A DNA stretch of 64,000 nt, from assembly GCA_029933005.1 (NCBI GenBank), contig JAOZOY010000002.1, positions 22,694 to 86,693 on the forward strand, in the 5' to 3' direction. Within the stretch, counting starts at the first letter, position 1. The number at the start of each line of letters is the position of its first letter. Source of the stretch: Deltaproteobacteria bacterium (lineage in GTDB: Bacteria; Desulfobacterota; Desulfobulbia; Desulfobulbales; SURF-16). Below the pieces are notes generated by a model. The model saw only the letters and a program-made list of their open reading frames with translations. It was not told the DNA's origin and did no database searches. Below, in pieces: positions 14,615 through 41,362 of the stretch. Position numbers and translations under genes: made by a program.

Positions 14615-15658
14615 ATGTCAGAATACGAATTAACCTGGATTACCGATAGTCTTGCCGTGGGCTACGCTCCCATGTCATACGCCGAACTTGATTCCATCAG
14701 GGATCAGGGAATTGATGGTATTGTCAACCTCTGTGGAGAGTTCTGCGACCTGCACGAGATTGAGGAAGGCAGTGGCTTTGAGGTTTATTATCTGCCCATT
14801 CCCGATGAGAATGCGCCGGACATGGGGGAGATGGAGAAGGGGCTGCAGTGGCTGGATGAGGCCTTTTATCTCGGCAAAAAGGTATTAGTACACTGCCGGC
14901 ATGGTATTGGGCGTACCGGCACTTTTGTGACGGCCTATCTTCTCCGCCGGGGATTGGGTATGAAGGTTGCGGAAAAAAAATTAAAGCATACCAAAGCATC
15001 TCCGTCAAATTACACCCAGTGGAAATTATTAAAAAAATATGGCAAAAAAGAAGGTGTTCTTAAAATTCGCGAACCGTCTCTTGAAAACCGTCGCGTTGTC
15101 GATCTTTCCGAGTTTTTCAATGAATACGAGGCACTGTTGCTTGATGTGGATGAGCAGATTGAGGCGCTGCACCGGCAGAAGGCATTTCCTCGTTGCGGTG
15201 TAGACAGTTCAGTCGGCTGTTACCGCTATTTCAGGTTGCAGCTTATAGAGACGATTTATCTCAGTAATAAGATGAATAAAAAATTGACCAGCCAGATGCG
15301 CCAGGAAGCGATCGGCCGGGCTGTTGCTGTTGCCGGTCAGATTCGGAAGATTGCCCGGCTCAAGAGTGGACCTGAGTTGGAATCGACCTATGAACAGGCT
15401 CGTCTTCTCTGTCCTTTAAATGTTGATGACAAATGTATTCTGGCTGAGTTTCGACCGGTTAGCTGCCGGCTTTACGGAATTGGTCCGGATGGCCCGGATG
15501 TGGATTTGATTCGGGATGTTGTCATCAGTGTTTCCCGGAATGTTTTTGTCGCATTGTCAGGTTCTCTGCCGAATGGGCCGATGTTTACCACCACCTGTGG
15601 TGATGCTGTTTCCGGTAAATTTGCCCAGGACTATTTTCACTTTATGGCTTCATTGTAA
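14615..15658 (+). CDS. dual-specificity (Cys-based) protein phosphatase fused to a YkgJ-like cysteine-cluster domain
   Basis: HCxxGxxR(T) P-loop (VHCRHGIGRTGT) in the N-terminal 150 aa. The C-terminal half has spaced Cys and CILAEFRPVSCRLYG, resembling the UPF0153 C-terminal motif. Confidence 0.7.
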   Translation: MSEYELTWITDSLAVGYAPMSYAELDSIRDQGIDGIVNLCGEFCDLHEIEEGSGFEVYYLPIPDENAPDMGEMEKGLQWLDEAFYLGKKVLVHCRHGIGRTGTFVTAYLLRRGLGMKVAEKKLKHTKASPSNYTQWKLLKKYGKKEGVLKIREPSLENRRVVDLSEFFNEYEALLLDVDEQIEALHRQKAFPRCGVDSSVGCYRYFRLQLIETIYLSNKMNKKLTSQMRQEAIGRAVAVAGQIRKIARLKSGPELESTYEQARLLCPLNVDDKCILAEFRPVSCRLYGIGPDGPDVDLIRDVVISVSRNVFVALSGSLPNGPMFTTTCGDAVSGKFAQDYFHFMASL

Positions 15659-15703: not shown

Positions 15704-17122
15704 ATGGATGCTCTCAAAAAGACGCAACGAGTCATGATTGTCGATGATGAGCCGGATATGCTCAATATGATCCAGCTTATTCTCAAACGTAAATTTGATT
15801 GCGAAATTGTGCTGGCCGGTTCCGGTGAGGAAGGCCTGCGACAGCTTGAAAAATATCAGCCAGATGTCATTGTCAGTGACATCAAGATGGCGGATCTTGA
15901 CGGTCTTACTCTTCTTAAATTGGTCAGGGAGTTTGATGAAACCATTTCCGTTGTGCTCATGACAGGATACGGAACCATTGAAATGGCGGTTCAGGCTCTG
16001 AGGGACGGTGCCTATGATTTTCTGGAAAAACCGTTTGATAAAGACTATCTGATTCGGATTATCTCTCATTGTCTGGAGCGAACCCGGCTTCTACGCGACA
16101 ATCAAAATCTTCAGGATAAGCTGAGTGATTGCGCATTGCCCCATGGTTTCATCGGTCAGTCACCCCGTTTACGCGCAACCCTTGATCTGATTTCCAGAGT
16201 GGCGAATACCGATGTCACGGTTTTGATTCGCGGTGAGTCCGGCACCGGAAAGGAGGGCGCGGCCAGGGCTCTGCACGAAATGAGTGACCGGCGGGACCGG
16301 AAGATGGTGACCGTCAACTGTCCCGCTCTTCCCGAGCATATTTTGGAAAGTGAACTTTTCGGCTATGTCAAAGGCGCTTTTACCGGGGCCGTAAAAGACA
16401 AAAAAGGTCTATTTTTGGAGGCCCACGGGTCAACGATTTTACTTGATGAGGTCGCTGATATTCCACTTTCAATTCAAACCAAGTTATTGCGGGTTCTCCA
16501 GGAAAAGGAAATTCAACCCCTGGGACAGAATGATTGCCTGAAGGTCGATGTCAGGGTGGTCGCTCTGACGAATCAGGATATTGAAGCAATGATTGCGGCT
16601 GGACAGTTCCGGGAAGACCTTTTTTATCGCCTTAATGTGGTGACTGTAACCATGCCCTCACTTGAGGCAATGCAGGAGGATATCCCGCTTTTGGCCCATC
16701 ATTTCCTGGAACGCTATAGAAAAAAATATAAGCGCCTGGATTTGGAGTTAACGGATGATGCCATGGGATATCTTGTGAAAAGAAAGTGGCCGGGCAATGT
16801 CAGGGAGTTACAGAATATTTTGAAAAGGGGGGTTCTTCTCTGTTCTTCAAATAAAATTGCAGCAGTTGATCTTGGCGCTAATGGCAATGATGTAGAGGAA
16901 AAAAAGCCCTGTCTTGATCAGTCCCGTTTGCTTGATATGTCATACAGTGGCGCTAAAAATGAAGTTCTCAAACTGTTTACCACCAAGTATTTAAGTGAAA
17001 TTTTAACAAAAAATAAAGGGAATGTCACGGCCTCGGCTAAACAAAGCGGTCTTGAAAGACAATCTTTTCAGCGGATTATGCGTCGTTATAATATTCTTTC
17101 AGCAGATTTTAAAAAAACGTAA
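15704..17122 (+). CDS. sigma-54-dependent response regulator (NtrC/Fis family enhancer-binding protein)
   Basis: REC domain (VMIVDDE...SDIKMADLDG), then AAA+ domain with GESGTGKE and the GAFTGA loop, then a C-terminal Fis-type HTH. Confidence 0.9.
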   Translation: MDALKKTQRVMIVDDEPDMLNMIQLILKRKFDCEIVLAGSGEEGLRQLEKYQPDVIVSDIKMADLDGLTLLKLVREFDETISVVLMTGYGTIEMAVQALRDGAYDFLEKPFDKDYLIRIISHCLERTRLLRDNQNLQDKLSDCALPHGFIGQSPRLRATLDLISRVANTDVTVLIRGESGTGKEGAARALHEMSDRRDRKMVTVNCPALPEHILESELFGYVKGAFTGAVKDKKGLFLEAHGSTILLDEVADIPLSIQTKLLRVLQEKEIQPLGQNDCLKVDVRVVALTNQDIEAMIAAGQFREDLFYRLNVVTVTMPSLEAMQEDIPLLAHHFLERYRKKYKRLDLELTDDAMGYLVKRKWPGNVRELQNILKRGVLLCSSNKIAAVDLGANGNDVEEKKPCLDQSRLLDMSYSGAKNEVLKLFTTKYLSEILTKNKGNVTASAKQSGLERQSFQRIMRRYNILSADFKKT

Positions 17123-18279: not shown

Positions 18280-18296
18280 CTGGTATGAGTTTTGCT
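18280..18296 (+). promoter_or_regulatory. sigma-54 (-24/-12) promoter upstream of the 18326 sensor operon
   Basis: CTGGTATGAGTTTTGCT, with GG at 18282-83 and GC at 18294-95 separated by exactly 10 nt, and the TTGC -12 element intact. It lies 30 nt upstream of ATG 18326. Confidence 0.5.
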
Positions 18297-18325: not shown

Positions 18326-18796
18326 ATGAAAATTATCCGACATCATTTATTTAAAATAATACCATTTACAGTTACTTTCCTGTTGCTTGGTTTATCCGGC
18401 GTCGCCCAGGCATTTCAGGCCCACGGTGCCCCTGAAGGATTGTATGTCCACCAGATGTCCCATGTCCTCTTTATGTGCGGCCTGGCGTATCTGTACTGGC
18501 ATACACGTCGTACCGCCGCTCTGGTCAGCAAGGGCTGGCGGTATCTGCGTAGTTATTGTGTTCTGCTGATTCTCTGGAATATTCTCGCCTTTACCGGTCA
18601 TGCCATCGAAACGATTCTTGTCCCCGATGATTTTTTAAATAGCGGTTCCTGGGGATCTGTCATGCTTGAGCCTTTGACCTTGCCGAAGATTGTTTTTTAT
18701 ATTGTTAAGATGGACCATCTGCTCTGTGTGCCGGCTGCCTTTTTTCTGTTGTTCAGTCTCAGGACGTTTTATCTTGAACATAAGGGGGAAGAATAA
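18326..18796 (+). CDS. small integral membrane protein (4 predicted TM helices, conserved His)
   Basis: Signal/anchor plus hydrophobic helices. Its stop overlaps the start of the downstream kinase gene (TAATG). Confidence 0.6.
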   Translation: MKIIRHHLFKIIPFTVTFLLLGLSGVAQAFQAHGAPEGLYVHQMSHVLFMCGLAYLYWHTRRTAALVSKGWRYLRSYCVLLILWNILAFTGHAIETILVPDDFLNSGSWGSVMLEPLTLPKIVFYIVKMDHLLCVPAAFFLLFSLRTFYLEHKGEE

Positions 18797-20364
18797 TGCA
18801 TACTCTCCCCATGTATCCCACAATCCTGATAGATCTCGTCGGCTCAGGCTTGATGATTCTGATTACTTTCCTGGCCCTGCGCTATGCCTATTTTTTAAGT
18901 ACCCTGGATTCGAAGAATTTTATCTGGGGTTTTCTTTTTTATTTTTGTATGGCCATGGCCGCCTTTTCAATTTCCCGTGGGGTCGGCCATATCCTGAAGC
19001 AGATTCTTGTCTTGTCCGGGCATAAGGAGACATGGAAAGTTTTTTCCCCTTATTCCGGTGGATTTAATACCACCCTGATGATTTACCTTTACGCCGTCAT
19101 CATCTATTACCACAAGGGCTTGGCCGCTTATGAGGCGATCCAGGAAGAGGCCTCGAAACTGTTCACGGCCAATAAAAAACTTGAAGATGCCACCGGTGAA
19201 TTGCAGAAAATGAATGTCCAGCTTGAGGATATGGTGGAAGAACGGACACGGGAACTTTCTGAGTCAGAGAAGAAATTTCGCCATTTTTTCGAAAATTCCC
19301 AGGACATGGTTTATTTCTGTAATTCTGAAGGCAGTATTTCCGATATTAATCAAAGTGGATTGGAAATGCTGGGCTATAAAGAGTGGCCCAAAGATCTCAA
19401 TATTCTGGATATTTTTAACAAGGAGTCGGAACTGGAAACCTATGTTAAGGCCTTGCATGAAAAAGGTTTTGTCCGTGATTTTGAGATTGAAATTCACAAT
19501 GCCGATGGAGATCCTCTCCAAGTTGTTATCACGGCTAACGCGGTTCGGGATGATAACGGCAAGATGATCGGCTGTGAAGGGATTGCCAAGGATTTGACCA
19601 GGTTGAAAAATGTGATGGCGCAGCTGGCGGATAAACAGAAGTTGGCTTCGGTGGGCCAGCTTGCCGCAGGCGTTGCCCATGAAATTAACACTCCCCTTGG
19701 CGTCATCCTAGGCTATTCCCAGTTGATGAAAGAAGATTTTCCTGAAGATGATGATAATTACGAATCGATGGTTGTTATTGAACGGCAGGCCAAAGCCTGC
19801 CGGAAAATTGTTGCCGATCTGCTTAAATTTTCCCGCCAGGGTCTCAGTGAAAAGACCTATATGCAGCTCAATGAAATTATCCAGGATGTGGTGGCTGTCA
19901 CTGAACATGGCCTCAATATTGATCATATCATGGTTACGAGAAAATACAGTGAGGGAATGCCCTTTATCTTCTGCGATGTAGAAAAGTTGCGTCAGGTATT
20001 TATTAATTTGATCAATAACGCCCATCATGCCATGGAAGAAGGTGGGGAAATTATTATTTCCACTCGTACCTGCGCCGATGGACAGGAGGTTGAGGTTGTT
20101 GTCGAAGATACCGGCAAGGGAATCCCGGATGATGTAAGAAGCAAGATTTTTGAGCCATTTTTCACCACGAAGGCAGTGGGCAAGGGTACCGGGCTGGGCT
20201 TATCCGTATCTTATGGGATTATTCAGGATCATGGAGGGACAATCACTGTTGAGAGTCCCGTGGCCGGGAAGGATCATCCCGGTACGGCATTTACCATTCA
20301 TTTGCCTGTGGCAAGCGAACAGCCGTCCGCCGAATCTTTTGAAAGCGTGTTGAAGTTGCATTAA
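18796..20364 (+). CDS. membrane PAS sensor histidine kinase
   Basis: N-terminal TM helices, a PAS domain, H-box [10 protein letters not shown], and N/G1/G2 boxes ([25 protein letters not shown]). Confidence 0.85.
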
Positions 20365-20379
20365 AACAGGATCTTTGTG

Positions 20380-21558
20380 ATGGAAAAGAAAACAGCCGCC
20401 AGTCGTGATTATCTCAAGCAGGTCAGAGAGATCTCCCGGCTGGTGAATTCCACCTTGGATCTGAAGAAAATTTTGAATTTGATTGTTGAAAAATTACCGG
20501 TGGTTTTGCCGTGTAAGGCCTGTACAATCAGACTACTCGATCCAAGCCGCCAGCACCTTGAGCTTGTTGCAGCTTCAGCAAATCTGTCCGAGGAATATCT
20601 CGCCAGGGGATCCATCGTAAAAGAGGGTCACCTCCATACTGTGTTAAAGGGGGAGCCGGTAACTATTTATGACGCAACCAGCGATCCTCTGGTCGATTTC
20701 CAGGATGAAGCTGAAAAGGAAGGGGTAAAAAGTATTCTGGCCGTACCAATCAAGGTCAATCATAATATTATCGGTGTGTTACGCTTGCTCACGGATCATC
20801 ATCATGATTTCAGCCAGGATGAGATCAATTTTGCCATGACCGTGGCGGAAGAGGGCGGCAGTGCCATTAAAACTGCGCAGAATTACCAAAAAATAAATCT
20901 TCTCTTCCAGCAGAATGAAGAACATGAACGGTTTTTGCAGAGTATTATTGACAGCATTCCTCTCCAGCTTGTGGTGGTGGACCGTAACCAGAGAATCGTG
21001 CTGGTCAACAGGTCGTTTCTCCAGAAGTACAATCTCAAGGAAAAGGACAGTCTGGGTCGTTTGTTTAAGGATTTTACCCCGCCGGAACTGCAGAATAATG
21101 GTGTTGATGACCAGCAGTCCGATCCGGATAACATGCAGCAGGCCGTGTGGCGGTGTCAGCGGACTTATGGCGGTAAGTGGCTGGAAATGACGGATTCTCC
21201 GCTTTATGGTCAGGATGGCAGGCTTGAATATACCATTCGCATAATTCGTGATGTGACGGCACAGCATCTTTTATCCGAGGAACAGATGGAAAGGGGAAAG
21301 TTACAGGGAGTTATTGAAATGGCCGGAACCGTTGCCCATGAGTTGAATTCTCCGCTTTTTGCGGCCTTGGGAACAGCTCAACTCCTGCGGGAAGAATTAT
21401 CTGATTCCGATGAAAGAGCAGAGGAATTGGATTTGATTATTCGTAATATTCAAAAAGTTGGAAAATTAACCAAAAAAATGGCATCCATCACCCGTTACAA
21501 AACTAAACCGTATGTCGGTAATATCCAATTGGTGGATATTGATCAGGCAACTGCTTAG
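20380..21558 (+). CDS. GAF-PAS-DHp protein lacking a kinase ATPase domain
   Basis: GAF-like N-terminus and a PAS-like middle. The H-box VAHELNSPLFAALG is about 70 aa from the C-terminus, and no N/G1/G2 boxes follow. Confidence 0.75.
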   Translation: MEKKTAASRDYLKQVREISRLVNSTLDLKKILNLIVEKLPVVLPCKACTIRLLDPSRQHLELVAASANLSEEYLARGSIVKEGHLHTVLKGEPVTIYDATSDPLVDFQDEAEKEGVKSILAVPIKVNHNIIGVLRLLTDHHHDFSQDEINFAMTVAEEGGSAIKTAQNYQKINLLFQQNEEHERFLQSIIDSIPLQLVVVDRNQRIVLVNRSFLQKYNLKEKDSLGRLFKDFTPPELQNNGVDDQQSDPDNMQQAVWRCQRTYGGKWLEMTDSPLYGQDGRLEYTIRIIRDVTAQHLLSEEQMERGKLQGVIEMAGTVAHELNSPLFAALGTAQLLREELSDSDERAEELDLIIRNIQKVGKLTKKMASITRYKTKPYVGNIQLVDIDQATA

Positions 21559-21864: not shown

Positions 21865-22224
21865 ATGGCAAAAATTCTGGTGTTAGACGATGTCTTTGAT
21901 GCAGGAGTGATGATCAAAAAAATCCTGCAGAGGAAAGGGCATGACGTCGAGACATTTACAGAGGAAGAGGATGCCCTGGCCCATGTCAAGGATCATCCCG
22001 TGGATCTGGCCATTCTTGACATCAAGCTTAAGAAGATGAGCGGTGTCGAGGTGCTGGAGGAAATGAAAAAAATAAGTCCTGAAGTAAAGGCCATTATGCT
22101 GACTGGCTTTCCCACCATAGAAACAGTCAGACAGGCCTTATCCCTGGGCGCAGACGAGTATTGTGTCAAGCCTATAGATAAAGACGAATTAGAGGATAAA
22201 GTGGCCCAGGTTCTGGGTGATTAA
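21865..22224 (+). CDS. single-domain response regulator (receiver only)
   Basis: ILVLDD...LAILDIKLKKMSG...MLTG...K pattern over 119 aa. Confidence 0.85.
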   Translation: MAKILVLDDVFDAGVMIKKILQRKGHDVETFTEEEDALAHVKDHPVDLAILDIKLKKMSGVEVLEEMKKISPEVKAIMLTGFPTIETVRQALSLGADEYCVKPIDKDELEDKVAQVLGD

Positions 22225-22240
22225 TTCTCGGAGGTAGATT

Positions 22241-24361
22241 ATGAGAAAAACAGTATGGAGCATGTGTGGAATGTGTTCCGTTCGCTGTCCCATTCGAGTT
22301 GAGGTGGAAAACGGCGAAATTAAATGGATTGAGGGCAACCCTCATCTGCTCGGCGGTGCTCTCTGTGCCAAGGGGTCGGCCGGTCCGGCCCTGGTGGCCG
22401 ATGATGAAAGGCCCAGACAGCCGCTTATTCGCAAGGCCGGTCGTGGCGCCGGTCAGTGGGAGGAGGTAAGCTGGTATGCTGCCCTTGATTATATTGCGGA
22501 TAAGATGAAAAAAATTAAGGAGAAGCATGGTGCGGAAGCCATGATGATGAGCTGCCGGGGCGGACCATTTCCGGATATGTTCAAGTCCTTTCTGCATGGT
22601 TTTGGTTCTCCGAACTTTACCAATCATGACAGTGGCTGCGGCCGTAATGTCCACCATGCCAGTAAATCGGTATATGGCCTGGGCCGGAAAGGCTTTATCT
22701 ATGATATTAAAAATGCCAAACATCTGGTTCTGTTTGGCCGTAATATCCTTGCCGCCCTGCGTATTGCCGAGGCCAATCAGGTCATGGACATGCTGGAAAA
22801 CGGCGGTAAGCTGACCTATGTTGATGTGCGCCAGTCCATGACCGGCATCAAGGCAACCCGTTTTTTTCAGGTTCGGCCGGGTACGGATTACGCCTTTCTG
22901 CTGGGAACAATTCACGGTCTTATTAAAAAAGAGGCCTATGACAAGGAATTTATTGAGCGTTATGTCAGTGATTTTGACAAACTCGTCGAGTTTATTGAGC
23001 CTTATACGCCGGACTGGGCTGCCAAGGAATGTGGCGTCAAGGTTAAAGGAATTAAGGATTTTATCAACGAGGTTGCTGAAGACAGGCCTAAGGTCATCTT
23101 CCATCCGGGCTGGATGTTGTCCCGGTATCGCGATTCTTTCTATGCCAGCCGTGCCCTGCATATCCTGAACGTCCTTATGGGTAATATCGAAGTTGAGGGT
23201 GGTCAGCTTCTGCCCAAGACTCCGGGTGACTGCGGTGTCAAGGGACTGCGTACCCTGGGCAGTATGGTGAGTGAAAAACCCACCCAGGAGCGGGCTGACC
23301 AGGTCGGCACCAAGTATACCCATTTTGATAAGGGCCCCGGCCTCTTCCATCTTTTTTATAAAGCCATGGAAACCGGCAAGCCTTATCCTGTCAAGGGTCT
23401 GATCTGTTACCGGCATGATCCTTTTAACTGCTTTCCTGATCCCCAGGCTCAGAAAAGAGCCCTGGATAACTGTGACCTGCTGGTCTCAATCGATACTCAC
23501 TACAGTGAGTTCGGCTGGTACAGTGATGTGATTCTGCCTGAATCCACCTATCTGGAAAGGGATTCCGCTATTGTCGCCCAGAAGGGTAATAAGCCCCGTT
23601 TTATCAAACGGAACAAGGCGCTGGAGCCCAGGCTTGATACCAAGCCCATGTGGGAAATTGTCAAGATGCTGGCTGATCGGCTCGGTTTTGGTGATAATTT
23701 CCCCTATAATTCCATTGAAGAGCTGTGGAAATGGCAGTTGGAGCCCACCGGCGTTTCTCTGGAAGATTTTGATGAAAAGGGCTATGCGGAATTGACCGAC
23801 ACCCCCATTCCAATTGACCAGGAAAAACTGGAGAAGAATATCAAAACCCCGTCCGGCAAGATTGAGATCATCAGTAAAGTCCTGACTGATGCCGGATTGC
23901 CTTCCCTGAAGGAATATGAGAGTCCGTTGAAACCGCCGAAAGGCCAGTTCCGTCTGGTCTTTGGCCGTACGGCTGTTCATGCCCATGGCCATACCATCAA
24001 CAATCCTCTTCTTCATGAGTTGATGCCGGATAATAGTGTCTGGATCAACAAGCGGGCTGCCTCGAAACTGGGTATTGCCGAGGGAGACTTGGTGGATGTC
24101 ATTGCCCATGACGGCACCACGGGTGTGATTAAAGCGCATGTTACTGATTTTATTCATGCGGAGGCAATCTATGTTGTTCACGGTTTTGGCCGCCAAGTGC
24201 CCTTGCAGACACGGGCCTATCATTCCGGTATGAGTGATCAGAAACTGCAGGGAGGCTTACTGCAGGACATGGATCCTGCTGGTGGCGGTCTCTGTCTCTG
24301 TGAATCCATTGTTACCGTGCTTCGCAGTTCCAAGAACCCGAAGAGGAGGGTCGAATTATGA
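22241..24361 (+). CDS. molybdopterin oxidoreductase catalytic subunit (Psr/Phs-like), no Tat signal
   Basis: N-terminal CxxCxxxC...C FeS motif (CGMCSVRCP...LCAKG) starts at residue 9 with no RR leader. A candidate Cys Mo-ligand lies in NHDSGCGRN. MopB-type C-terminal domain. Confidence 0.85.
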   Translation: MRKTVWSMCGMCSVRCPIRVEVENGEIKWIEGNPHLLGGALCAKGSAGPALVADDERPRQPLIRKAGRGAGQWEEVSWYAALDYIADKMKKIKEKHGAEAMMMSCRGGPFPDMFKSFLHGFGSPNFTNHDSGCGRNVHHASKSVYGLGRKGFIYDIKNAKHLVLFGRNILAALRIAEANQVMDMLENGGKLTYVDVRQSMTGIKATRFFQVRPGTDYAFLLGTIHGLIKKEAYDKEFIERYVSDFDKLVEFIEPYTPDWAAKECGVKVKGIKDFINEVAEDRPKVIFHPGWMLSRYRDSFYASRALHILNVLMGNIEVEGGQLLPKTPGDCGVKGLRTLGSMVSEKPTQERADQVGTKYTHFDKGPGLFHLFYKAMETGKPYPVKGLICYRHDPFNCFPDPQAQKRALDNCDLLVSIDTHYSEFGWYSDVILPESTYLERDSAIVAQKGNKPRFIKRNKALEPRLDTKPMWEIVKMLADRLGFGDNFPYNSIEELWKWQLEPTGVSLEDFDEKGYAELTDTPIPIDQEKLEKNIKTPSGKIEIISKVLTDAGLPSLKEYESPLKPPKGQFRLVFGRTAVHAHGHTINNPLLHELMPDNSVWINKRAASKLGIAEGDLVDVIAHDGTTGVIKAHVTDFIHAEAIYVVHGFGRQVPLQTRAYHSGMSDQKLQGGLLQDMDPAGGGLCLCESIVTVLRSSKNPKRRVEL

Positions 24362-24822
24362 ACAAATATATGCTCTACCTCGACTCCAAACGCTGTATCG
24401 GCTGTCATGGATGCGAGGTCCATTGTAAAACCAATAAAGGTCTCCCTGTTGGACCTATTCTCTGCGAGATCAGCCATGATCCGTTAAAAGCAGTGCGCGG
24501 TGTTCCCAGGACTGAGTTTCGCTTCCGTTCCTGTTTTCATTGCGAGGATCCTTTTTGCGTGCCGATCTGTCCGACCAAGGCCATGATCAAACGTGATGAC
24601 GGTATTGTTTATATTGATCAGGATAAATGTGTCGGCTGCATGGCCTGTGCGGGCGCTTGTCCGTGGAATATTCCGCAGATGAACCCGGAAACCGGCAAGG
24701 CGGTCAAATGCGATTATTGCATGGATCGCCTTGATATCGGTTTACGTCCGGCCTGTGTGACCAAGTGTACCACCCATGCTCTTAAGCTTGTGACCATGCA
24801 TGAGGTGACTGATTCAAAGTAG
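24358..24822 (+). CDS. 4Fe-4S dicluster electron-transfer subunit
   Basis: Several CxxCxxCxxxCP motifs (CIGCHGCEVHC, CVGCMACAGACP). ATGA start/stop overlap with the catalytic subunit gene. Confidence 0.85.
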   Translation: MNKYMLYLDSKRCIGCHGCEVHCKTNKGLPVGPILCEISHDPLKAVRGVPRTEFRFRSCFHCEDPFCVPICPTKAMIKRDDGIVYIDQDKCVGCMACAGACPWNIPQMNPETGKAVKCDYCMDRLDIGLRPACVTKCTTHALKLVTMHEVTDSK

Positions 24823-24844
24823 ATTGGAAAGTTGAATTGAGAGG

Positions 24845-25297
24845 ATGAATATGCTGGATACATGTGTAGATGGGGCTCGGGTTGCAGTGGAAAACATAAA
24901 AAGAGCCGCAGCATCCCCGCTGGGGATTTTTATCTATGCCGCGTTATCGGGAATGATTGGTATTGTTATTCTGGTAGTCTTTTTTTCCATGGTATTTCCC
25001 GGATCCACCTTGCTCGTGATCCTGCCTGTTTTTATTTCGTTCAACGCTGCTGCCGGCGGCTACGGTATAGTTGACAAAGGAGGGTGTGATTTTCCTTGGC
25101 TTAAGGTCAGCCTTATTGTCATCAGTGGTCTGCTGGCCGCAACAGGATGTTTTTCCATAATTGTTCTTTTTCCATGGGAAGCAACGACGATAGGTATTCA
25201 TTTTCTCCTCGGCAGCCTGGCAGCCTTGGTTTTTTCTTTTTTTGGCGCCTGGCTGGGTGCAAAGAGTAAAAAAGTGAAGAGAACATCTCAACCTTAA
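24845..25297 (+). CDS. small membrane protein (about 4 TM) of the oxidoreductase operon
   Basis: Hydrophobic helices throughout and no recognisable motif. Called from operon position. Confidence 0.55.
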   Translation: MNMLDTCVDGARVAVENIKRAAASPLGIFIYAALSGMIGIVILVVFFSMVFPGSTLLVILPVFISFNAAAGGYGIVDKGGCDFPWLKVSLIVISGLLAATGCFSIIVLFPWEATTIGIHFLLGSLAALVFSFFGAWLGAKSKKVKRTSQP

Positions 25298-25386
25298 TTA
25301 ATTTAAACAGGAGGTGTTACTGAAGAAAAGTTCATCACGGTTATATGTGAGTAGTCTAAACCCATTCTAAATTAGTGGAGGAAAAA

Positions 25387-27078
25387 ATGAAGAAGATTAA
25401 ATGGCCATCAATTATTTTGATGTTTGCTGCGATTTTTCTATTTACCGTTCCATGTTTTGCCGAGGTCAATATCTCGGCCGCAAAATATAAGGCGGGAGAT
25501 GTTGTAACCTTTGAAGGTACTATTGCCCCGGGCCAGGATCTGTATATCGCTGTTGCCCAGCAAAAAATGTTTAAACCAGCGGATACTAACGGTAAATTTG
25601 AGAAAAAGAAATTGCCGAAAAAAGGAAAAAAGGCGGGTTTTGGTAACGATACAGCTATTCCCCCTCTTTATTATATGCTGACCACCAACAGGGATGCCTT
25701 TGGTGAAGATGTAAATAAAAAATTTGGTGGCCCTTCTTTCGCATTTAAGAAAGGTGGCGGACTTTATAACACCACCATGTTTAAGCTGAAGAAAAATTTT
25801 GCTGACGTGGGCGCCAAGGAGATGATGGGTCCCATCCAGACAGCCGAGCAGTGGAATTTTTTCAAATTCGTCCATGAGAACAAATACGGTATCAATACTG
25901 TTGTTAAAGAGGGCAACAAGAAAGGTAAGGTTGTCATCTTTGCCCGAAGTGTCGTCGGTGATGCCTCTACCGGCAATTACTGGGACAAGGGCACATCCAT
26001 CAAGCTTGACAAGACTACCGGTAAATTTACCGCTTCTTTTGCAACATATCGTCATACGGCGCCGAACACGGCCTTTGATGTCTATGTCAACGGCACCAAA
26101 GGTGGTTCCTATGTTGTTGAGAAGAACGGTTACTGGATGAACCTGGGTTATCGTTATATGAATCCTCTCTGGGTTACCCTCGGCGCCATTGCCGTTGGTA
26201 CCTATTTTTCCATGATCGGCGCTGCCGGTGGTATGCTCATGGGTGCTTTCCAGGCCCTGGTCGTTCAAACCGCAGGTCCGGTTGGTATCAACGCCGCCAA
26301 CGTTCTTCGTCCATCAAATATCGCCCTCACCCTGTTTTCTCCGCTGGGTTCTTTTTACCGCTTTGCCGTGGTTGAAAAACGTGTTGCCTGGCCGGTCGGC
26401 CTCTCTTTTGGTGCCGGTATTTTCCTCGGTTCCGTCTGGCTCGGTGGCTATGTCACCCAATATCTCTCCATGAAGGCTTACAAAGAGTGGTTGGGTATTC
26501 TGGTTGTTCTGATGGGTATTAAAACTCTCATGGAAATGACCCCTGCGGCCATGAACAAGAGAAAAAACATCAAGGCCATGACCCAGAAATTCAACGCTGC
26601 TGTCAAGAAGGCTAAAGAGACCGGCGGCGCAGTTGAAATGGGTTCAATTGAACCGGTAAAATCAGGTCTTACGGATTACCGTTTTAAGTTCTGGGGCGAG
26701 GAATTCAGAATTAATCCGCTGCTCTTTGCTGTTCTCGGTGTCATCGTAGGTGTTGCATCAAGGGCCTTTGGTATTGGCGGTGGTTTCCTGCTGGTACCCA
26801 TGATGACGACTATTGCCGCTCTGCCCATGTATGTGGCCGTGCCAATTTCTTTGATCGGCACCTGTTTTTCCAGTATCGGTTCGTTCATCGGCTATGTGAT
26901 AAATGGCTATATGCCGGATATGACGCTGGCCATTGCCATTATTATCGGTGGTTTTGCCGGTGGTATGCTCGGCAGTCGTGCTCAGAAGATGTTCAGTGAG
27001 AAGACTCTCAAGGTTATTCTGGCCTGTACCCTGTTCTTCCTTTTCTTCCGTTTCTTGAAGATTGAGTACTGGATCTAA
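25387..27078 (+). CDS. TauE/SafE (TSUP) family anion exporter with a roughly 250-aa N-terminal exported domain
   Basis: Signal peptide MKKIKWPSIILMFAAIFLFTVPCFA, then a Lys-rich soluble domain, then two halves of a TSUP-like permease (GAAGGMLMG... / GIGGGFLLVPMM). ATG 25387 follows GGAGG. Confidence 0.75.
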   Translation: MKKIKWPSIILMFAAIFLFTVPCFAEVNISAAKYKAGDVVTFEGTIAPGQDLYIAVAQQKMFKPADTNGKFEKKKLPKKGKKAGFGNDTAIPPLYYMLTTNRDAFGEDVNKKFGGPSFAFKKGGGLYNTTMFKLKKNFADVGAKEMMGPIQTAEQWNFFKFVHENKYGINTVVKEGNKKGKVVIFARSVVGDASTGNYWDKGTSIKLDKTTGKFTASFATYRHTAPNTAFDVYVNGTKGGSYVVEKNGYWMNLGYRYMNPLWVTLGAIAVGTYFSMIGAAGGMLMGAFQALVVQTAGPVGINAANVLRPSNIALTLFSPLGSFYRFAVVEKRVAWPVGLSFGAGIFLGSVWLGGYVTQYLSMKAYKEWLGILVVLMGIKTLMEMTPAAMNKRKNIKAMTQKFNAAVKKAKETGGAVEMGSIEPVKSGLTDYRFKFWGEEFRINPLLFAVLGVIVGVASRAFGIGGGFLLVPMMTTIAALPMYVAVPISLIGTCFSSIGSFIGYVINGYMPDMTLAIAIIIGGFAGGMLGSRAQKMFSEKTLKVILACTLFFLFFRFLKIEYWI

Positions 27079-27191: not shown

Positions 27192-27809
27192 ATGGATATG
27201 GATGAGTTCATGGACGCCTTATTGGACAATATATTGATCATGGTTCAATATGGAGCGTCGTTGTTTGACCGTCTACTTACGCCGCTTCATGTCTTCGGCC
27301 CTCTTGTTGTTATGACTTTGCTTGCTATTATGACTGTTGCGGTCACTAAACTGCTGAACAGAATCATTATCACCAAGCGTTACACCCGGTTGGAAGAAGA
27401 ATTTCAGCACTGGTTCAAAGTTCGCCAGGAAGCCATGAAATATGAGGATTATGATAAGGCAAAACGGCTGGCCAGAAATATCGATCAGGCGAAATTAAAC
27501 CAGGTCTACTATGATTATTTTTTAGAAGGATTCCTGCTGGGACTCATGCGCAATGTCCTGCCGATCTTTCTTGTCTGCACCTATATTAATAAATTTTATC
27601 GTGCCGAGGAACTCAGTCGTTTATTCGGCAAGGCATATATGCTCAGCATCCCGTCAACCAGTGGTGAACCGATCCTGATCGGGGCGGTATTTTATTATAT
27701 TATCACCCTGTTGCTATCTTACCTGGCATGGTTTATAATCAAAAAAATGGTCACTAAGAAAGTCAGTAGTCCAAAATCACTGGAATCTGTAACAGCGGAT
27801 CTTGCCTGA
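27192..27809 (+). CDS. three-TM membrane protein with EMC3/TMCO1 (DUF106)-like layout
   Basis: TM1, then a charged coiled coil (RLEEEFQHWFKVRQEAMKYEDYDKAKRLARNIDQAKL), then TM2 (LPIFLVCTYINKFY), a short beta-like segment, and TM3 ending in a basic tail. The family call is from pattern memory. Confidence 0.5.
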   Translation: MDMDEFMDALLDNILIMVQYGASLFDRLLTPLHVFGPLVVMTLLAIMTVAVTKLLNRIIITKRYTRLEEEFQHWFKVRQEAMKYEDYDKAKRLARNIDQAKLNQVYYDYFLEGFLLGLMRNVLPIFLVCTYINKFYRAEELSRLFGKAYMLSIPSTSGEPILIGAVFYYIITLLLSYLAWFIIKKMVTKKVSSPKSLESVTADLA

Positions 27810-27869: not shown

Positions 27870-30341
27870 ATGTTACTCAATACACTTTTCAAGCATTGGT
27901 CGTACCGGTTATTTGCTCCGGGAACGATTATGCGTGAAAAGTACGAGGCGTTTAAACTCCTGCTGCACTACGATGTGCTTTGCCATGAGCAGATGGCGGA
28001 GATTCAGGATCTTTTTTATGGTGATCACCATGAGGATCTCTGCCGCATTCGTAAGCGTTTCACCCTTTTTTCCGAGCAGGTTGCCGGCATGATAGCCAGT
28101 CTCGAAACAATGGCTCCGGTAACCTATGTATCTCTTAAGGAGTATCATAAAAAATTTAATTTCTATATATGTTTTTTGCTGGCATCACCTGAAATTGATT
28201 TCTCACCTCCCTTTGTAGTTCCCCTTGCCAAAATAAATCCAGCCAACAAAAATATCGGCAATAAGGCAAAGAATCTCGCTATTCTGAAAAATGAACTTGG
28301 CGCTCCTGTGCCTCATGGTTTTGCGGTGACAGCCAATGCTTTTCATTATCTTCTCGAATACAACAATCTGCGTGGAGAAATTGATGATTTGCTCTCGGAA
28401 CTTAATATCGACTCATCCCACTCCCTGAACGTGATTTCCGGACAGTTACAAAAGCATATCCGAACAGCTGAGATGGTGCCGGACATCGAGATGGCCATGT
28501 ATGCCGCTTATGATGATCTGGAACAGGCGGTAAGCAGGCCGCTGACCATTGCTGTCCGCAGCAGTGCAATCAGTGAAGATGGCGAGTGTTCTTTTGCCGG
28601 TCAGTATGAAAGTATCCTTGGTGTAACCAAAGAAAAACTTATTGGAGCTTATCTGGAGGTAATGGCCTCAAAATATTCTCCTACTGCTCTTTGTTATCGT
28701 ATCAGAAACGGTTTGAGCGATGAAGAAACAGCCATGTCCGTGCTGATGTTGGAAATGGTTTCGGCAAAAAGTAGTGGCGTTCTCTATACCCGTGCTCCGC
28801 TGCAGGAAGCCGGGGAGAGCGATAAGCTTCAACTCCACGTTATCCGCGGATTTGGTGAAGCCTTGGTTGGTGGCGCAGCAATACCTGATCAGTATGTTAT
28901 GACAAGGGAGGAACATCCCAGGATTCTGAGCAGGAAGGAGCAGCACTCAGTTATTACGGAAAAACAGGTAGAGGTTATTGGCCGCTGGGGAATGAATATT
29001 GAAAAGTATTTTCAAACTACCCAGGATATTGAGTGGGCAATCGATACTGACGATAATCTTTATTTTTTGCAATCCAGACCTTTGCATATTTCCGCAGTAA
29101 TGGAAGCTCCCCGGAAAGCGACGGGAGAGGAGGAAAATCTTGTTGTTTTACTTGATGGTTGTGAAAGGGCGGCAGGCGGCGTTGCTGCCGGAGCGGTTTA
29201 CAGGCTTGATGACAACCATAAGCTGGAAGATATTCCCCTCGGAGCTGTGCTTGTAACCCGTAATACACCGCCAAGCTATGTACAGGTTATCAATCGGCTT
29301 GCTGCAGTCATTGCCGAGCGAGGTAGTCGGGCAAGCCATTTTGCCACTGTGGCCCGCGAATTTGGTGTGCCTTTCCTGGCGGGAACCGGCAGTGCCGCGC
29401 AATCCTTCGTACATGACAGCCAGATAACGGTTGACGGGGATCAGGGTGCAGTTTACCAGGGGAAAATCGAATCATTGATCCGTAAGGATACTGATCATTT
29501 AGAAAAAGACAGGTACTATCGAACCCTTAAAGAGGTTTTAAATTTTATTACGCCCCTTGAGCTTGTTGATCCGGCAGGGAAAAATTTTACGCCGGAAGGC
29601 TGCCGTTCCATGCACGATATTATCCGATTTTGTCACGAAAAGGCGGTGCAGGCGATGTTTTCTTCGGCCAGGCCGGGATCGGGACGCGGATCCTTGAAAC
29701 TGGTCGCTGATGTGCCCCTTGATGTGTTTTTATTTGATGTGGGGGGCGGAATTACTGCAGGGATACAGGAGGGAGGTTCCGTGCCGCTTGCCGGAATCAC
29801 ATCCGTGCCCTTTCAAGCTTTGTGGCGAGGTCTTGGCCACCCTGATGTGCAGTGGAAGCAGAAACCATTTGACTGGGATGCCTATGACAAGGTTGAACTG
29901 GCCGGCGGCATACCACCGGCTCGAGACAGCTTCGCCTTTTCAAGTTACGCCGTGATCGGTTTTGATTATCTCCATTTTAATATTCGTTTTGGCTATCATT
30001 TTACCATTGTCGATGTCCTATGCGGCAAAAATTCTGCGGAAAATCATTGCATGCTGCGTTTTGCCGGCGGAGGCGGCGATTTTGGTCATCGTTCGTTGAG
30101 AATAGATTTTATTACACGCATTCTTGAGCAGCTTGAATTTACAGTGGAAAAAAAGGGGGATATGCTTGAAGCTCGGCTTTCGAGCATGGAGAGCAGGGTT
30201 ATGCAGCATAAACTCGATATGCTTGGGCGTCTGCTTGGAGCTACCAAGTTGATGGACATGGTTCTTGAAGACGAGCAGATGGTGTCCCAGTGTGTTGATG
30301 ATTTTTTCAGTGGCCGTTATTCTTTTTCCCAGGAAGGGTGA
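27870..30341 (+). CDS. PEP/pyruvate-binding (PpsA-like) phosphotransferase family protein
   Basis: ATP-grasp PPDK_N-type region (GNKAKNL...VAVRSSA..ED...SFAGQ) and a swivel phospho-His domain (ERGSRASHFATVAREFGVPF). The C-terminal ~280 aa did not match the canonical PEP-binding barrel motifs I know. Confidence 0.8.
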   Translation: MLLNTLFKHWSYRLFAPGTIMREKYEAFKLLLHYDVLCHEQMAEIQDLFYGDHHEDLCRIRKRFTLFSEQVAGMIASLETMAPVTYVSLKEYHKKFNFYICFLLASPEIDFSPPFVVPLAKINPANKNIGNKAKNLAILKNELGAPVPHGFAVTANAFHYLLEYNNLRGEIDDLLSELNIDSSHSLNVISGQLQKHIRTAEMVPDIEMAMYAAYDDLEQAVSRPLTIAVRSSAISEDGECSFAGQYESILGVTKEKLIGAYLEVMASKYSPTALCYRIRNGLSDEETAMSVLMLEMVSAKSSGVLYTRAPLQEAGESDKLQLHVIRGFGEALVGGAAIPDQYVMTREEHPRILSRKEQHSVITEKQVEVIGRWGMNIEKYFQTTQDIEWAIDTDDNLYFLQSRPLHISAVMEAPRKATGEEENLVVLLDGCERAAGGVAAGAVYRLDDNHKLEDIPLGAVLVTRNTPPSYVQVINRLAAVIAERGSRASHFATVAREFGVPFLAGTGSAAQSFVHDSQITVDGDQGAVYQGKIESLIRKDTDHLEKDRYYRTLKEVLNFITPLELVDPAGKNFTPEGCRSMHDIIRFCHEKAVQAMFSSARPGSGRGSLKLVADVPLDVFLFDVGGGITAGIQEGGSVPLAGITSVPFQALWRGLGHPDVQWKQKPFDWDAYDKVELAGGIPPARDSFAFSSYAVIGFDYLHFNIRFGYHFTIVDVLCGKNSAENHCMLRFAGGGGDFGHRSLRIDFITRILEQLEFTVEKKGDMLEARLSSMESRVMQHKLDMLGRLLGATKLMDMVLEDEQMVSQCVDDFFSGRYSFSQEG

Positions 30342-30461
30342 AAATTGATGAAACGAATTTTGTAACTGTTCAGGTAGGACTATCAGCTACCATTAAACTT
30401 GTGACTCTGTATGGGGTGATCGATTCAAAATAAGAAGTCTTGTTTTGGGCGCAGGTTTTTA

Positions 30462-30491
30462 GGCCCGTCTCAAATTGAGGCGGGCTTTTTT
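30462..30491 (+). terminator. rho-independent terminator after the PpsA-like gene
   Basis: GGCCCGTCTC-aaatt-GAGGCGGGC followed by T6. Confidence 0.7.
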
Positions 30492-32046: not shown

Positions 32047-32229
32047 TCAGCGGCCATCTAAAACCAGCACTTCCCCAACCATCTGAAATTGTCTATTTTT
32101 TTCTTCTGTTGTTGAGGTTTTCTTTCGATCTTCTTCCATTTTGAGTCGATCATCAGTCATGGAGGTTGTGACTGATGGACCCAAAAAACTCAAAGAGTAA
32201 CATACGCCACCACTTATTGAAGTTACCAT
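32047..32229 (-). CDS. possible 60-aa protein translationally coupled to the upstream HD-GYP gene
   Basis: The ATG overlaps the HD-GYP stop (TAATG), and the ORF ends just before the operon terminator. No similarity recognised; composition is low-complexity. Confidence 0.3.
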   Translation of the reverse strand: MVTSISGGVCYSLSFLGPSVTTSMTDDRLKMEEDRKKTSTTEEKNRQFQMVGEVLVLDGR

Positions 32230-34109
32230 TATTTCACAAATCTAAAGAGTTTTTTTCTCTGAGTTTTCGCGGTATCCGTGATAGGCGTTTTTTTCAATGA
32301 ATGTTGGCTTGCCGTGGATCGTAAGTTTGGATAATCCGTAAAGAGGTGTCTGTCTTTCAGTTTTTTCCAATCCATGAAATTCGGGGAAGATAGGGCAAGA
32401 GGTTTTTTGTCTTCATATGTTTTTTTAATTTTTTGAAATTCTTTTTCTCTGGCAAGAAAGGCTTCAACAACGTCAGGATCAAAATGTCTGCCCTTTTCTT
32501 CAACAATAACCGCTAATGCTTTCTGGTGGGAAAAGGATTCCTTGTAAGTCCGTTTAGAAGTCAGGGCATCATAGACGTCGGCGAGGGAAACGATTCTTGA
32601 TGATAATGGAATTTCTTCTCCATTCAGACCTTGGGGATAGCCGGAGCCATCCCATTTTTCATGATGGAAATAGGCGATTGTTTTGCCCATGGTCAGAAAT
32701 GACGGGCCGGGAACCTGTCCCTCAATCGCCTTTATAGTGTCGCCGCCAAGCAGGGTATGCTGTTGAATGATTTCAATTTCATCGGGAGTTAATCGGTCCG
32801 CTTTTAACAGGAGATTATCCGGGATGCCGACTTTGCCGATATCATGAAGAATGGAAGACATGTAAATATCTTCAATAAACCGAGTTGAAATATAATCATG
32901 ATATTTTGGCTTTAAGGCCAGTTCCGTGGCGAGTATGCGGCAGAATTCCCTGATTCTCTCCAGATGGTTACCGGAGTTGATATCACGGTATTCCGCCAGG
33001 TTGGCCAAGGAAAGAATTGTTGCGGAGCGGGTTTCCTGCACCCTTGTAAAGGATGCCAGTAACTCTGTTTCCAGCTTTTTTCTGTCTGTGATATCCCTGA
33101 CCAGCATCTGGTATCCAACCAGTGCTTGATCCTTATAAATAGTTGTGGCATTACATTCGACATCAATGATCTGTTTCTGCTTGTTGATGAATCTGAATTG
33201 CAGCCCAGTGACGTTTCGGCCGTCCTGTAACTGTTGTAGAAGAGAGCGCAGCACAGTCTCCTGGTCATCCGGATGGACAAATTCTAGAATGAGATCCCCC
33301 GCTTTTTCATGAGCCGGATCTCCCATGGTTTCGTAGAAACGGGGATTGGCCATGACAATTTTGCCGTCGCGGTCCGTGAGGATGACATCATCACTGATGT
33401 TTTCGTACAGCTTTTGGTAGCGAATTTCAGATTTTTTCAGTTCTTTCGTTCTGTTGGCAACCTCTTCCTCAAGATGATCCGCATGGTAGGAAAGTTGAGC
33501 GGCAAGAGCGTCCTCCTTCATTCGCATATTAAATTCTCTTTTTCTGGCTCGGGACTCTTCCAGGCATTTGACAATAATGATAAGAAGAAAAGAGACGAAG
33601 AAAAAAGTGTTATTGAAAAGTATTTTTAGGTTTGAAGGTGTGAGCTGGTTGTAAATAAAAATCGGTGCCAGGTAAAAAGAATAGACCAGAATCCCTGTTC
33701 CAGCAGCTTGGTATGGATTTAAGGGTAAAATAACGGCACAGACAACAAGAACCATGACCATCCCGATATAATATGAAGAGGTAATACCGCCAAGTTTGAT
33801 GATCATGATTGATATTGTCAGTGCCGAGATAGCATAGGCTGTTATGGCAGTGGAAAAGGGTTGTCTGCGCGAGAAGGAGGTTCTGTTTGCGATATAAATA
33901 CCAAGAAGCGAGAGAGAACACAGAATTCGCAGGATGAAAAAAGACGTGAAGAGTGAGGGGGCTACAACATAATCAAGAATGGAAAAACAAGGAAAGAGAA
34001 AAGCCCCGAACAGAACAGTGGTATTGATTCGTTGATGGAGGAGGGTTCGGGTTTCCTCCTGGTATTTCTGTAGATTGGCGGAAGAGATTTTTTCCATGAT
34101 CAGTCGCAA
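32229..34109 (-). CDS. membrane (6-TM) PAS-domain HD-GYP phosphodiesterase, copy 1
   Basis: N-terminal 6 hydrophobic helices, a coiled coil, a PAS domain, then HDIGKVGIPD ... HHEKWDGSGYPQGL (HD-GYP). Confidence 0.85.
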   Translation of the reverse strand: MRLIMEKISSANLQKYQEETRTLLHQRINTTVLFGAFLFPCFSILDYVVAPSLFTSFFILRILCSLSLLGIYIANRTSFSRRQPFSTAITAYAISALTISIMIIKLGGITSSYYIGMVMVLVVCAVILPLNPYQAAGTGILVYSFYLAPIFIYNQLTPSNLKILFNNTFFFVSFLLIIIVKCLEESRARKREFNMRMKEDALAAQLSYHADHLEEEVANRTKELKKSEIRYQKLYENISDDVILTDRDGKIVMANPRFYETMGDPAHEKAGDLILEFVHPDDQETVLRSLLQQLQDGRNVTGLQFRFINKQKQIIDVECNATTIYKDQALVGYQMLVRDITDRKKLETELLASFTRVQETRSATILSLANLAEYRDINSGNHLERIREFCRILATELALKPKYHDYISTRFIEDIYMSSILHDIGKVGIPDNLLLKADRLTPDEIEIIQQHTLLGGDTIKAIEGQVPGPSFLTMGKTIAYFHHEKWDGSGYPQGLNGEEIPLSSRIVSLADVYDALTSKRTYKESFSHQKALAVIVEEKGRHFDPDVVEAFLAREKEFQKIKKTYEDKKPLALSSPNFMDWKKLKDRHLFTDYPNLRSTASQHSLKKTPITDTAKTQRKKLFRFVK

Positions 34110-34148
34110 TAGTTCGCCGGGGCAATAAATCTTGGTTAATTCTTACGA

Positions 34149-37436: not shown

Positions 37437-37564
37437 GTAATGCGCTTATCGGGTAACAGAATATTTATCAATTTTGTCTGCATTTTTTGGTAACCATTCA
37501 GAATGCAGATTTTAAAAACTAATAGTCTTTAGTCTACAGCCTAACCACCTGAATAGTAAGCATT

Positions 37565-40532: not shown

Positions 40533-40545
40533 GGCTCTTTATCTC

Positions 40546-41329: not shown

Positions 41330-41362
41330 AATTTTTTGATCTTTAATAACAGGTTGTGAACC

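Follow-up and report, generated by a model that had tools for sequence, protein, structure and literature searches.

The thiosulfate reductase PhsABC of Salmonella and the polysulfide reductases PsrABC of Thermus and Wolinella reach the periplasmic side by twin-arginine translocation (Tat) and are held there by a membrane subunit that oxidises quinol. The molybdoenzyme described here shares with them the MopB subfamily, the FS0 iron-sulfur cluster, a predicted Mo-ligand cysteine and a four-cluster FeS partner, whereas it has no leader and no anchor. Its gene lies in a window of 64,000 nucleotides from a member of the Desulfobulbales (assembly GCA_029933005.1, contig JAOZOY010000002.1), among five open reading frames (ORFs) on one strand at 21865-27078, all of which are present in the ORF listing exactly where the original prediction, made from the sequence of that span, had put them. 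The genes are best explained as those of a soluble, cytoplasmic Psr/Phs-family molybdoenzyme with two subunits and of a membrane transport module that belongs to it. There is about an even chance that this system takes up thiosulfate and then cleaves it reductively in the cytoplasm to sulfide and sulfite. The anatomy of the genes, the location of the enzyme in the cytoplasm, its family and the co-conservation with the permease are shown here; substrate, electron donor, direction of transport and regulation are inferred.

Anchorless enzymes of this kind have been met before. Desulfolithobacter dissulfuricans has two PhsAB pairs without PhsC, one slightly higher in thiosulfate disproportionation and the other higher in sulfate reduction (Hashimoto et al. 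2022, PMC9751629), and an anchorless or cytoplasmic PhsAB-like enzyme is also described in PMC13047784, where Psr and Phs are held to be inseparable by sequence. In an August 2026 proteome of Dissulfuribacter thermophilus the cytoplasmic PhsAB-like enzyme DITHS69_2028/2027, which has neither Tat leader nor PhsC, belonged to the proteins with the largest increase during thiosulfate disproportionation (log2 2.45 and 3.51); a TauE protein and the membrane protein next to it rose by 1.56 and 1.79, and both YeeE/YedE candidates for thiosulfate uptake fell (PMC13490349). The authors propose that thiosulfate is cleaved in the cytoplasm with electrons from sulfite oxidation, and call for characterisation of the PhsAB-like enzyme and its "potential membrane association". 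Moreover, phsA transcripts of Desulfocapsaceae and Desulfobulbaceae go up with thiosulfate, and in seep microcosms the Desulfocapsaceae phsA responded to thiosulfate and not to elemental sulfur (S0) (bioRxiv 10.64898/2025.11.30.691342). The same study notes that Desulfocapsa sulfexigens has sulfite oxidoreductase activity without a known gene. The Tat-exported MOLY cluster is a different system, and disproportionation of thiosulfate and sulfur is considered an open question with no agreed set of marker genes (PMC12998232).

The enzymes of D. thermophilus and D. dissulfuricans resemble that of the window in having two subunits, no Tat leader and no PhsC, and they come from the same taxa. The enzyme itself had already been noticed in these papers of 2022-2026 (PMC9751629, PMC13047784, PMC13490349). 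The D. thermophilus and D. dissulfuricans papers do not include the linkage with a TauE gene, DUF8269, the 205-amino-acid protein, the neighbourhood of kinase, sigma-54 and PEP-synthase-like genes, or an NAD(P)H-linked version in Desulfobacterales. A literature search found no mention of DUF8269, and the linkage with the TauE gene and the exported domain appear to be undescribed. What is new is the coupling with a permease that carries an exported domain, the accessory membrane proteins, the regulatory set, the leaderless clade as a whole and the NAD(P)H-wired variant of Desulfobacterales.

Anatomy and family of the molybdoenzyme

The catalytic subunit (22241..24361, plus strand, as are all genes of the cluster) is a Mo-bisPGD (molybdenum bis-pyranopterin guanine dinucleotide) enzyme of 706 amino acids and 79 kDa with the domains Molybdop_Fe4S4, Molybdopterin and Molydop_binding (Pfam PF04879, PF00384, PF01568). 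The FS0 cysteines are C9, C12, C16 and C42. The ATG is preceded by a GGAGG ribosome-binding site, a TAG (22235-22237) and ATT; because this in-frame TAG stands two codons before the ATG, there is no upstream start and a twin-arginine leader is not possible. Among 117 homologous genes, 113 have no Tat-like motif before the start, and in the other four there are RR dipeptides within the translated stretch 5' of the conserved start, which we read as spurious. From its gene sequence, the enzyme is thus placed in the cytoplasm. The original prediction had held that the FeS motif begins at residue 9, that a leader is lacking and that the Mo site faces the cytoplasm, and all of this is borne out.

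The gene for the FeS subunit (24358..24822; 154 amino acids, 17 kDa; Pfam Fer4_11, NCBIfam DmsB-like with 131 bits) overlaps the catalytic gene by ATGA. Its product has 16 cysteines in four cluster-binding groups and no signal peptide, in agreement with the small 4Fe-4S protein that had been expected. It directly follows the MopB gene in 78 of 80 loci, and a natural MopB-FeS fusion of 921 amino acids exists (P0363, L167 8001-10766), with no membrane gene nearby. An NrfD/PsrC-like gene was found neither in the window cluster nor beside the enzyme genes of L081-L083, L085, L166 and L167.

Two further observations concern homologues of the enzyme. In three members of the leaderless clade (P0378, P0384, P0402) the N-terminal FS0 cysteine motif is entirely absent. 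The Desulfobulbaceae metagenome-assembled genome (MAG) bin10054 has two paralogues, one on a short contig (L001) and 81% identical to the window enzyme, the other (L034) 70% identical and adjoining the permease set.

In the ranking by NCBIfam profiles PhsA comes first with 518 bits, followed by the formate dehydrogenase alpha subunit (235), DmsA (198), ArrA (106) and TtrA (41), and the PhsA alignment begins at profile position 41, just past the leader of the true PhsA. The best match in the PDB is Thermus PsrA with 371 bits (PsrA 2vpw scores range over 371-444), compared with 171 bits for acetylene hydratase. In a scan of 1.84 billion cluster representatives the window family forms a single cluster at 50% identity. 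In the next clusters, at 35-48% identity, the FeS motif likewise starts at residues 8-13, and most of those at or below 37% identity have a Tat leader. A neighbour-joining tree of 129 full-length sequences, which is a distance tree of cluster sequences without named references, places the window enzyme within a monophyletic leaderless clade that is sister to Tat-bearing Psr/Phs-like clusters. This supports, and does not prove, a position of the leaderless clade inside the Psr/Phs family. The scores and the tree together do not put the enzyme in a clade of non-sulfur function, and on their strength a relative of formate dehydrogenase or acetylene hydratase was rejected.

The leaderless clade also holds an anchorless AB pair of Bilophila, and these related pairs have no TauE gene. 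This would suit a reductase for some other oxyanion (tetrathionate, trithionate, selenite or arsenate, for instance) that the permease would let in, working in detoxification or respiration and not specific to sulfur disproportionation. Selenite reductases are further relatives of Psr and Phs, as is the arsenate reductase ArrA, and the multi-layered, tight regulation of the cluster (see below) would suggest a substrate that is met occasionally; active-site residues unlike those of PsrA point the same way. We regard this as decidedly unlikely, given the low scores of ArrA and TtrA, a distribution almost wholly within dissimilatory sulfur metabolisers, and proteome and transcript responses that are to thiosulfate.

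SoeABC of Allochromatium vinosum is a complex iron-sulfur molybdoenzyme with a cytoplasm-facing active site, acting on a sulfur oxyanion, and its catalytic subunit SoeA has roughly 950 amino acids. The original prediction had seen its logic in the present genes, with other subunit sizes and another membrane partner. The likeness lies in the cytoplasm-facing subunit. The catalytic subunit of SoeABC is much larger and is joined by a membrane subunit of the NrfD type, whereas the window cluster has no anchor. An anchorless SoeAB analogue, that is a soluble sulfite dehydrogenase giving sulfate and passing electrons to NAD(P)+ or ferredoxin, would leave TauE to export sulfate or sulfite, and it would be the long-missing 'sulfite oxidoreductase' of Desulfocapsa. 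The cytoplasmic orientation, the classical proposal of TauE proteins as sulfite exporters and the reducing power of sulfite, which suffices for NAD(P)+, all fit. This alternative is nonetheless improbable, because the sequence affinity is to Psr/Phs, 706 residues are well short of SoeA and the family is widespread in ordinary sulfate reducers; in addition, the PhsAB-like pair is lower in sulfite-grown D. thermophilus, where sulfite disproportionation is also running (PMC13490349). No SoeA-like entry was recognised among the 150 closest protein clusters, all of them unnamed.

The permease and its linkage with the enzyme

The permease gene (25387..27078) encodes 563 amino acids from its ATG, or 567 from an alternative GTG at 25375. 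The protein starts with a Sec signal peptide, MKKIKWPSIILMFAAIFLFTVPCFA|EV, which is followed by an exported stretch of about 230 amino acids with 32 Lys, 3-4 Arg, 19 Asp plus Glu and no Cys (isoelectric point 9.7). In 39 of 40 homologues this domain is basic, and Cys is essentially absent from it, which would fit capture of an anion better than covalent binding of sulfane sulfur. A Pfam scan of the window protein gives no match to DUF8269 (PF26800) in this part; homologues that are 71-94% identical carry a precomputed PF26800 match. The remainder is a TauE domain (PF01925, residues 269-558) with 101 bits against a gathering threshold of 32.6. The signal peptide, the Lys-rich domain and the TauE permease had thus been recognised correctly in the original prediction.

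An AlphaFold2 (AF2) model built from 40 homologues has a mean predicted local distance difference test (pLDDT) score of 74. The exported domain is modelled as mostly beta (pLDDT 80-92) and the TSUP part as eight helices in two four-helix repeats with GGG motifs, which together with PF01925 is its likeness to the family. Ordinary members of the TauE/SafE (TSUP) family have about 250 amino acids and no extra domain, whereas the window permease adds the signal peptide, the basic exported domain and a conserved cytoplasmic insert of about 60 residues. In the model and the homologues this insert has a helix and three strands and the motif FKFWGEEF, in which F435, W436, G437, E438 and F440 are invariant. 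A fold search of the model against the PDB gave nothing significant (best E 0.03); the helical part recalls BacA/UppP loosely and the exported domain gives weak immunoglobulin/Fab-like matches, from which no function could be derived.

The TauE membrane domain (26161-27078) is 90-95% identical across genera (window against L036, L058, L060, L072 and L079), in loci where the enzyme is 67-70% and the exported domain 70-79% identical; this suggests an unusually strong constraint on the membrane domain.

The linkage of permease and enzyme was followed in 165 related loci. With one genome per species, a scan for the enzyme gave 80 loci (67-81% identity), which belong to Desulfobulbales, Dissulfuribacterales and related MAGs and to isolates such as Desulfurivibrio and Hydrosulfovibrio, and a scan of metagenomes for the permease gave 80 further loci. 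Overall, hundreds of contigs contain homologues that are 67-97% identical, far beyond chance. Where the flanks reach at least 5 kb on each side of the enzyme, a TauE-family gene is found in 29 of 36 loci, and in 19 of these 29 it is a recognisable DUF8269 fusion. In the permease-centred loci with long flanks, 21 of 25 have the leaderless enzyme gene and 24 the FeS gene. By our own estimate, a TauE gene within 8 kb of a random genome position would be rare. Co-conservation with TauE, which the original prediction had made a point to check, is therefore seen from both sides. The distribution lies nearly all in dissimilatory sulfur metabolisers, including ordinary sulfate reducers.

The gene order of the window (enzyme, FeS, 150-amino-acid protein, permease, 205-amino-acid protein, PEP-synthase-like protein) recurs in L041, L045, L088 and L089, and in the Desulfocapsa order the permease and the 205-amino-acid gene stand upstream of the enzyme gene. 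The permease comes in three types. Type 1 is 70-95% identical to that of the window, type 2 about 40%, and type 3, seen in one lineage, is split within the cytoplasmic loop (L035 10833-12452; L050 5632-7476): one gene encodes the signal peptide, an exported domain of about 235 amino acids and the first TauE half, and the second opens with the motif FWGxEF and continues with the other half. Homology of the type-3 exported domain with DUF8269 is not established, as the profile comparison gave 23% probability and E 9e-4 over 39 columns (E 0.5 in a reversed control). Since the linkage outlasts rearrangement, replacement by paralogues and gene fission, it argues for a functional coupling of enzyme and permease.

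It could be asked whether the two are simply neighbours under common regulation that handle different compounds. Four of the 25 permease loci lack the enzyme, seven of the 36 enzyme loci have no TauE gene nearby, and in D. thermophilus the enzyme and TauE genes are about 38 genes apart. Yet the two are co-induced in that organism even though unlinked, and the co-location elsewhere persists through rearrangement, three permease types and two bacterial orders, which makes separate functions very improbable.

The 150-amino-acid membrane protein (24845..25297) has 3-4 predicted transmembrane (TM) helices and is, as had been foreseen, unlike NrfD/PsrC anchors; it has no match in Pfam even at E 5 and none in NCBIfam. 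Its homologues stay immediately 5' of the permease where the enzyme sits on the other side (L034, L065, L071), and the same pairing occurs in many permease-centred metagenome loci (L086-L165). The protein is missing from Desulfocapsa-type loci. Its place as an operon partner of the enzyme is accordingly not kept: because it remains with the permease after rearrangement it is not the enzyme anchor, and for lack of a family match it was rejected as a known TauE partner too.

The 205-amino-acid protein (27192..27809) has three predicted TM helices, the first two of which are separated by a long helical stretch, and is always found with the permease. In type-1 loci its gene comes directly behind that of the permease; in type-2 loci, where its homologues have 23-28% identity, it comes behind the FeS gene. 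It matches EMC3_TMCO1 (PF01956) with E 6.6e-4 and 19.9 bits, below the cut-off of 27.1, and one homologue also gives a weak match, a weak hint that it may be an insertase of the Oxa1/EMC3 type. A single-sequence AF2 model was unusable (pLDDT 60, predicted template modelling score 0.34). A bacterial DUF106-like protein would be unusual, and the evidence on this protein is thin.

Desulfobacterales have a version of their own, in which the leaderless enzyme is followed by a 171-amino-acid FeS protein, a GltD/SudA-like NAD(P)H flavoprotein of about 720 amino acids, a 2Fe-2S/4Fe-4S protein, a 123-amino-acid protein, the permease, a 194-amino-acid protein, a kinase and a sigma-54 regulator (L085 3025-15783; L131, L144, L120 and others). 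L084, L125 and L165 have this set with no enzyme gene within the flank.

Substrate, electron supply and direction of transport

The proposed pathway starts in the periplasm, where thiosulfate would be captured and then moved inward by the permease, perhaps in exchange for sulfite or sulfate. The transport module would consist of the TauE/TSUP permease with its Sec-exported basic domain and the 150- and 205-amino-acid proteins. The soluble AB enzyme would cleave thiosulfate to sulfide and sulfite, the 79-kDa subunit holding Mo-bisPGD and one [4Fe-4S] cluster and the 17-kDa subunit four more clusters. The sulfite could then go to DsrAB in respiration or to AprAB/Sat in disproportionation; Sat is encoded in the window at 11801-13078, 9 kb upstream, as the original prediction had stated. 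It had also considered organosulfonates as substrate, in support of which nothing was found.

As the enzyme has no Tat leader and no quinol-oxidising anchor, only soluble carriers of the cytoplasm can supply its electrons. For Desulfobulbales the probable donor is ferredoxin or a comparable low-potential carrier. In Desulfobacterales the route may lead from NAD(P)H through the co-encoded GltD/SudA-like flavoprotein and the 2Fe-2S/4Fe-4S protein, and the presence of these two proteins is independent evidence for cytoplasmic redox chemistry with soluble carriers.

Several points weigh against the uptake and cytoplasmic cleavage of thiosulfate. TauE proteins are usually proposed as exporters, though we consider uptake at least as likely as the export that the original prediction had in mind. 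Thiosulfate reduction has an E0' of about -400 mV and is uphill with NAD(P)H under standard conditions. The NCBIfam score of 518 bits lies under the PhsA equivalog cut-off of 694 bits, and seven of 36 enzyme loci, as said, have no TauE gene nearby. The active site also differs. In an alignment to PsrA (2vpw) the Mo ligand Cys173 corresponds to the invariant C133, which is predicted to be the Mo ligand in the window enzyme; His145 and Arg332 of PsrA are replaced by the invariant Arg106 and Trp291, so that the pocket differs from that of PsrA, the only solved relative. The catalytic core thus appears conserved and the pocket different. Moreover, orthology with DITHS69_2028 and the Desulfolithobacter GF1 proteins is deduced from 67-81% identity across Dissulfuribacterales and Desulfobulbales; the window enzyme is 73% identical to that of a Dissulfuribacterales MAG (L010), 74% to that of Dissulfurimicrobium (P0014) and 68% to that of a Desulfolithobacter MAG (P0101). 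There is a hint, not a proof, that the window orthologue in D. dissulfuricans is GF1_10120 (PhsA-2), with the 128-amino-acid regulator GF1_10080 nearby, and the abundance of GF1_10120 was higher when the cells reduced sulfate than when they disproportionated thiosulfate (PMC9751629).

The same pocket bears on a cytoplasmic reductase for polysulfide or sulfane sulfur, which would act on polysulfide or a persulfide carrier while the cell disproportionates S0 or oxidises sulfide, with the permease importing polysulfide or exporting the product. The nearest solved structure is after all Thermus PsrA, but the two PsrA residues near Mo, His145 and Arg332, are not conserved. Psr cannot be told from Phs by sequence (PMC13047784) and the family is common in S0 disproportionators (Desulfocapsa, Dissulfurimicrobium, Desulfurivibrio), to which it can be replied that the Desulfocapsaceae phsA of the seep answers to thiosulfate and not to S0 (bioRxiv 10.64898/2025.11.30.691342) and that the D. 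thermophilus proteome ties the enzyme to thiosulfate (PMC13490349). NAD(P)H would be an easy donor for polysulfide; genes for rhodanese, TusA or Sud-like carriers were not found in the cluster, and the exported domain offers no Cys for the binding of sulfane sulfur. We consider polysulfide an unlikely substrate on this balance, and uptake and cleavage of thiosulfate remains the preferred reading.

A stronger form of the thiosulfate reading is possible, though doubtful. The anchorless enzyme could be joined with the DUF8269-TauE permease and the two small membrane proteins beside it in one physical unit for thiosulfate uptake and cleavage, in which the permease may be a thiosulfate/sulfate or thiosulfate/sulfite exchanger and the enzyme may dock on the FKFWGEEF insert.

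Regulatory genes and the wider neighbourhood

The real unit is larger than 21865-27078, which had been taken as the whole, and extends over about 14.6-30.5 kb. Its first gene (14615..15658) encodes a dual-specificity, protein tyrosine phosphatase-type phosphatase (Pfam Tc-R-P, PTP-SAK, DSPc) that recurs in the extended neighbourhood, in L081, L082, L083 and many metagenome loci. It is followed by a sigma-54-dependent response regulator with a receiver and an AAA+ activator domain (15704..17122; Pfam Response_reg, Sigma54_activat with E 2e-66), which is conserved in the cluster across related loci.

Next come a 156-amino-acid membrane protein with a signal peptide and about three predicted TM helices (18326..18796) and a membrane histidine kinase (18796..20364; PAS, HisKA and HATPase_c domains in Pfam, TM prediction). 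The stop of the former abuts the start of the latter, and its homologues stand directly 5' of the kinase in L081-L085 and most permease-centred loci; it is a conserved partner of the kinase. The kinase is conserved at 42-61% identity. The following gene (20377..21558) encodes a GAF-PAS-HisKA protein (Pfam) without ATPase domain; all eight homologues examined end right after the HisKA, or dimerisation and histidine phosphotransfer (DHp), domain (L034, L039, L046, L048, L061, L068, L070, L151), so that this kinase-dead, DHp-only sensor is a conserved part of the cluster and not a truncation.

The receiver-only response regulator (21865..22224; 119 amino acids; Response_reg its sole Pfam domain, E 2e-24) ends 16 nucleotides before the molybdoenzyme gene, leading the enzyme genes just as had been described, and is present with the cluster in most loci (55-74% identity). 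Expression would probably be set by the membrane kinase with its small partner, the sigma-54 activator and this regulator.

A sigma-54-type -24/-12 promoter-like element, TGGTATGAGTTTTGCT (18281..18296, plus strand), ends 30 nucleotides before the 156-amino-acid ORF. It is a consensus match only and the sole one in the window cluster, and such matches are fewer across the window than in shuffled sequence. Directly 5' of the regulator and enzyme genes of the window no sigma-54 promoter was found at up to two mismatches. In 14 related loci the redox operon does have a canonical -24/-12 element in front of it. In loci of the Desulfobacterales type a near-consensus TGGYAY-N5-TTGCT lies 85-185 nucleotides 5' of the first redox-operon gene (L109, L123, L125-L127, L129, L134, L138, L140, L141, L145, L164). 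An Rfam search found no riboswitch, including that for molybdenum cofactor (Moco), and no other family.

Downstream of the 205-amino-acid gene lies that of a phosphoenolpyruvate (PEP)-synthase-like protein (27870..30341; Pfam and NCBIfam), with an ATP-grasp PPDK_N domain, a mobile His domain and an uncharacterised C-terminus of about 300 amino acids. It recurs in L030, L035, L036, L039, L045, L081, L083 and L094-L108. In many genomes it is found around the cluster together with the dual-specificity phosphatase, and the two may be a phosphorylation/dephosphorylation pair. An intrinsic-terminator-like hairpin of 12 pairs followed by a T-run (30461..30487, plus strand), the strongest in the region, is likely to be the end of the transcription unit. 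The extended set recurs in D. sulfexigens, Dissulfurimicrobium, Desulfolithobacter and many metagenome contigs.

Further along, the minus strand at 32229-39121 holds a tandem duplication of a two-gene module, in which cyclic nucleotide-binding, methyltransferase-like proteins (518 and 520 amino acids) alternate with PAS/HD-GYP-type HD_5 proteins (574 and 626). At 39489-42307 a 236-amino-acid protein with a nitrite/sulfite-reductase-like 4Fe-4S/sirohaem domain is encoded between two radical-SAM genes.

The linkage described here names partners of the enzyme that can be tested, namely the permease with its exported domain, the two small membrane proteins and the set of sensors and regulators. 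It also extends the module past the disproportionators to the NAD(P)H-wired form of Desulfobacterales. If enzyme, permease and membrane partners do form one unit, the entry step that has been missing for thiosulfate respiration and disproportionation in Desulfobulbales and Desulfobacterales would be found, and no earlier TSUP permease would have had a periplasmic domain of its own for capturing the substrate. Should the substrate be confirmed, the gene pair could be used as a marker of cytoplasmic thiosulfate turnover in sediment metagenomes, and the poorly understood TauE/TSUP family would gain a defined physiological role.

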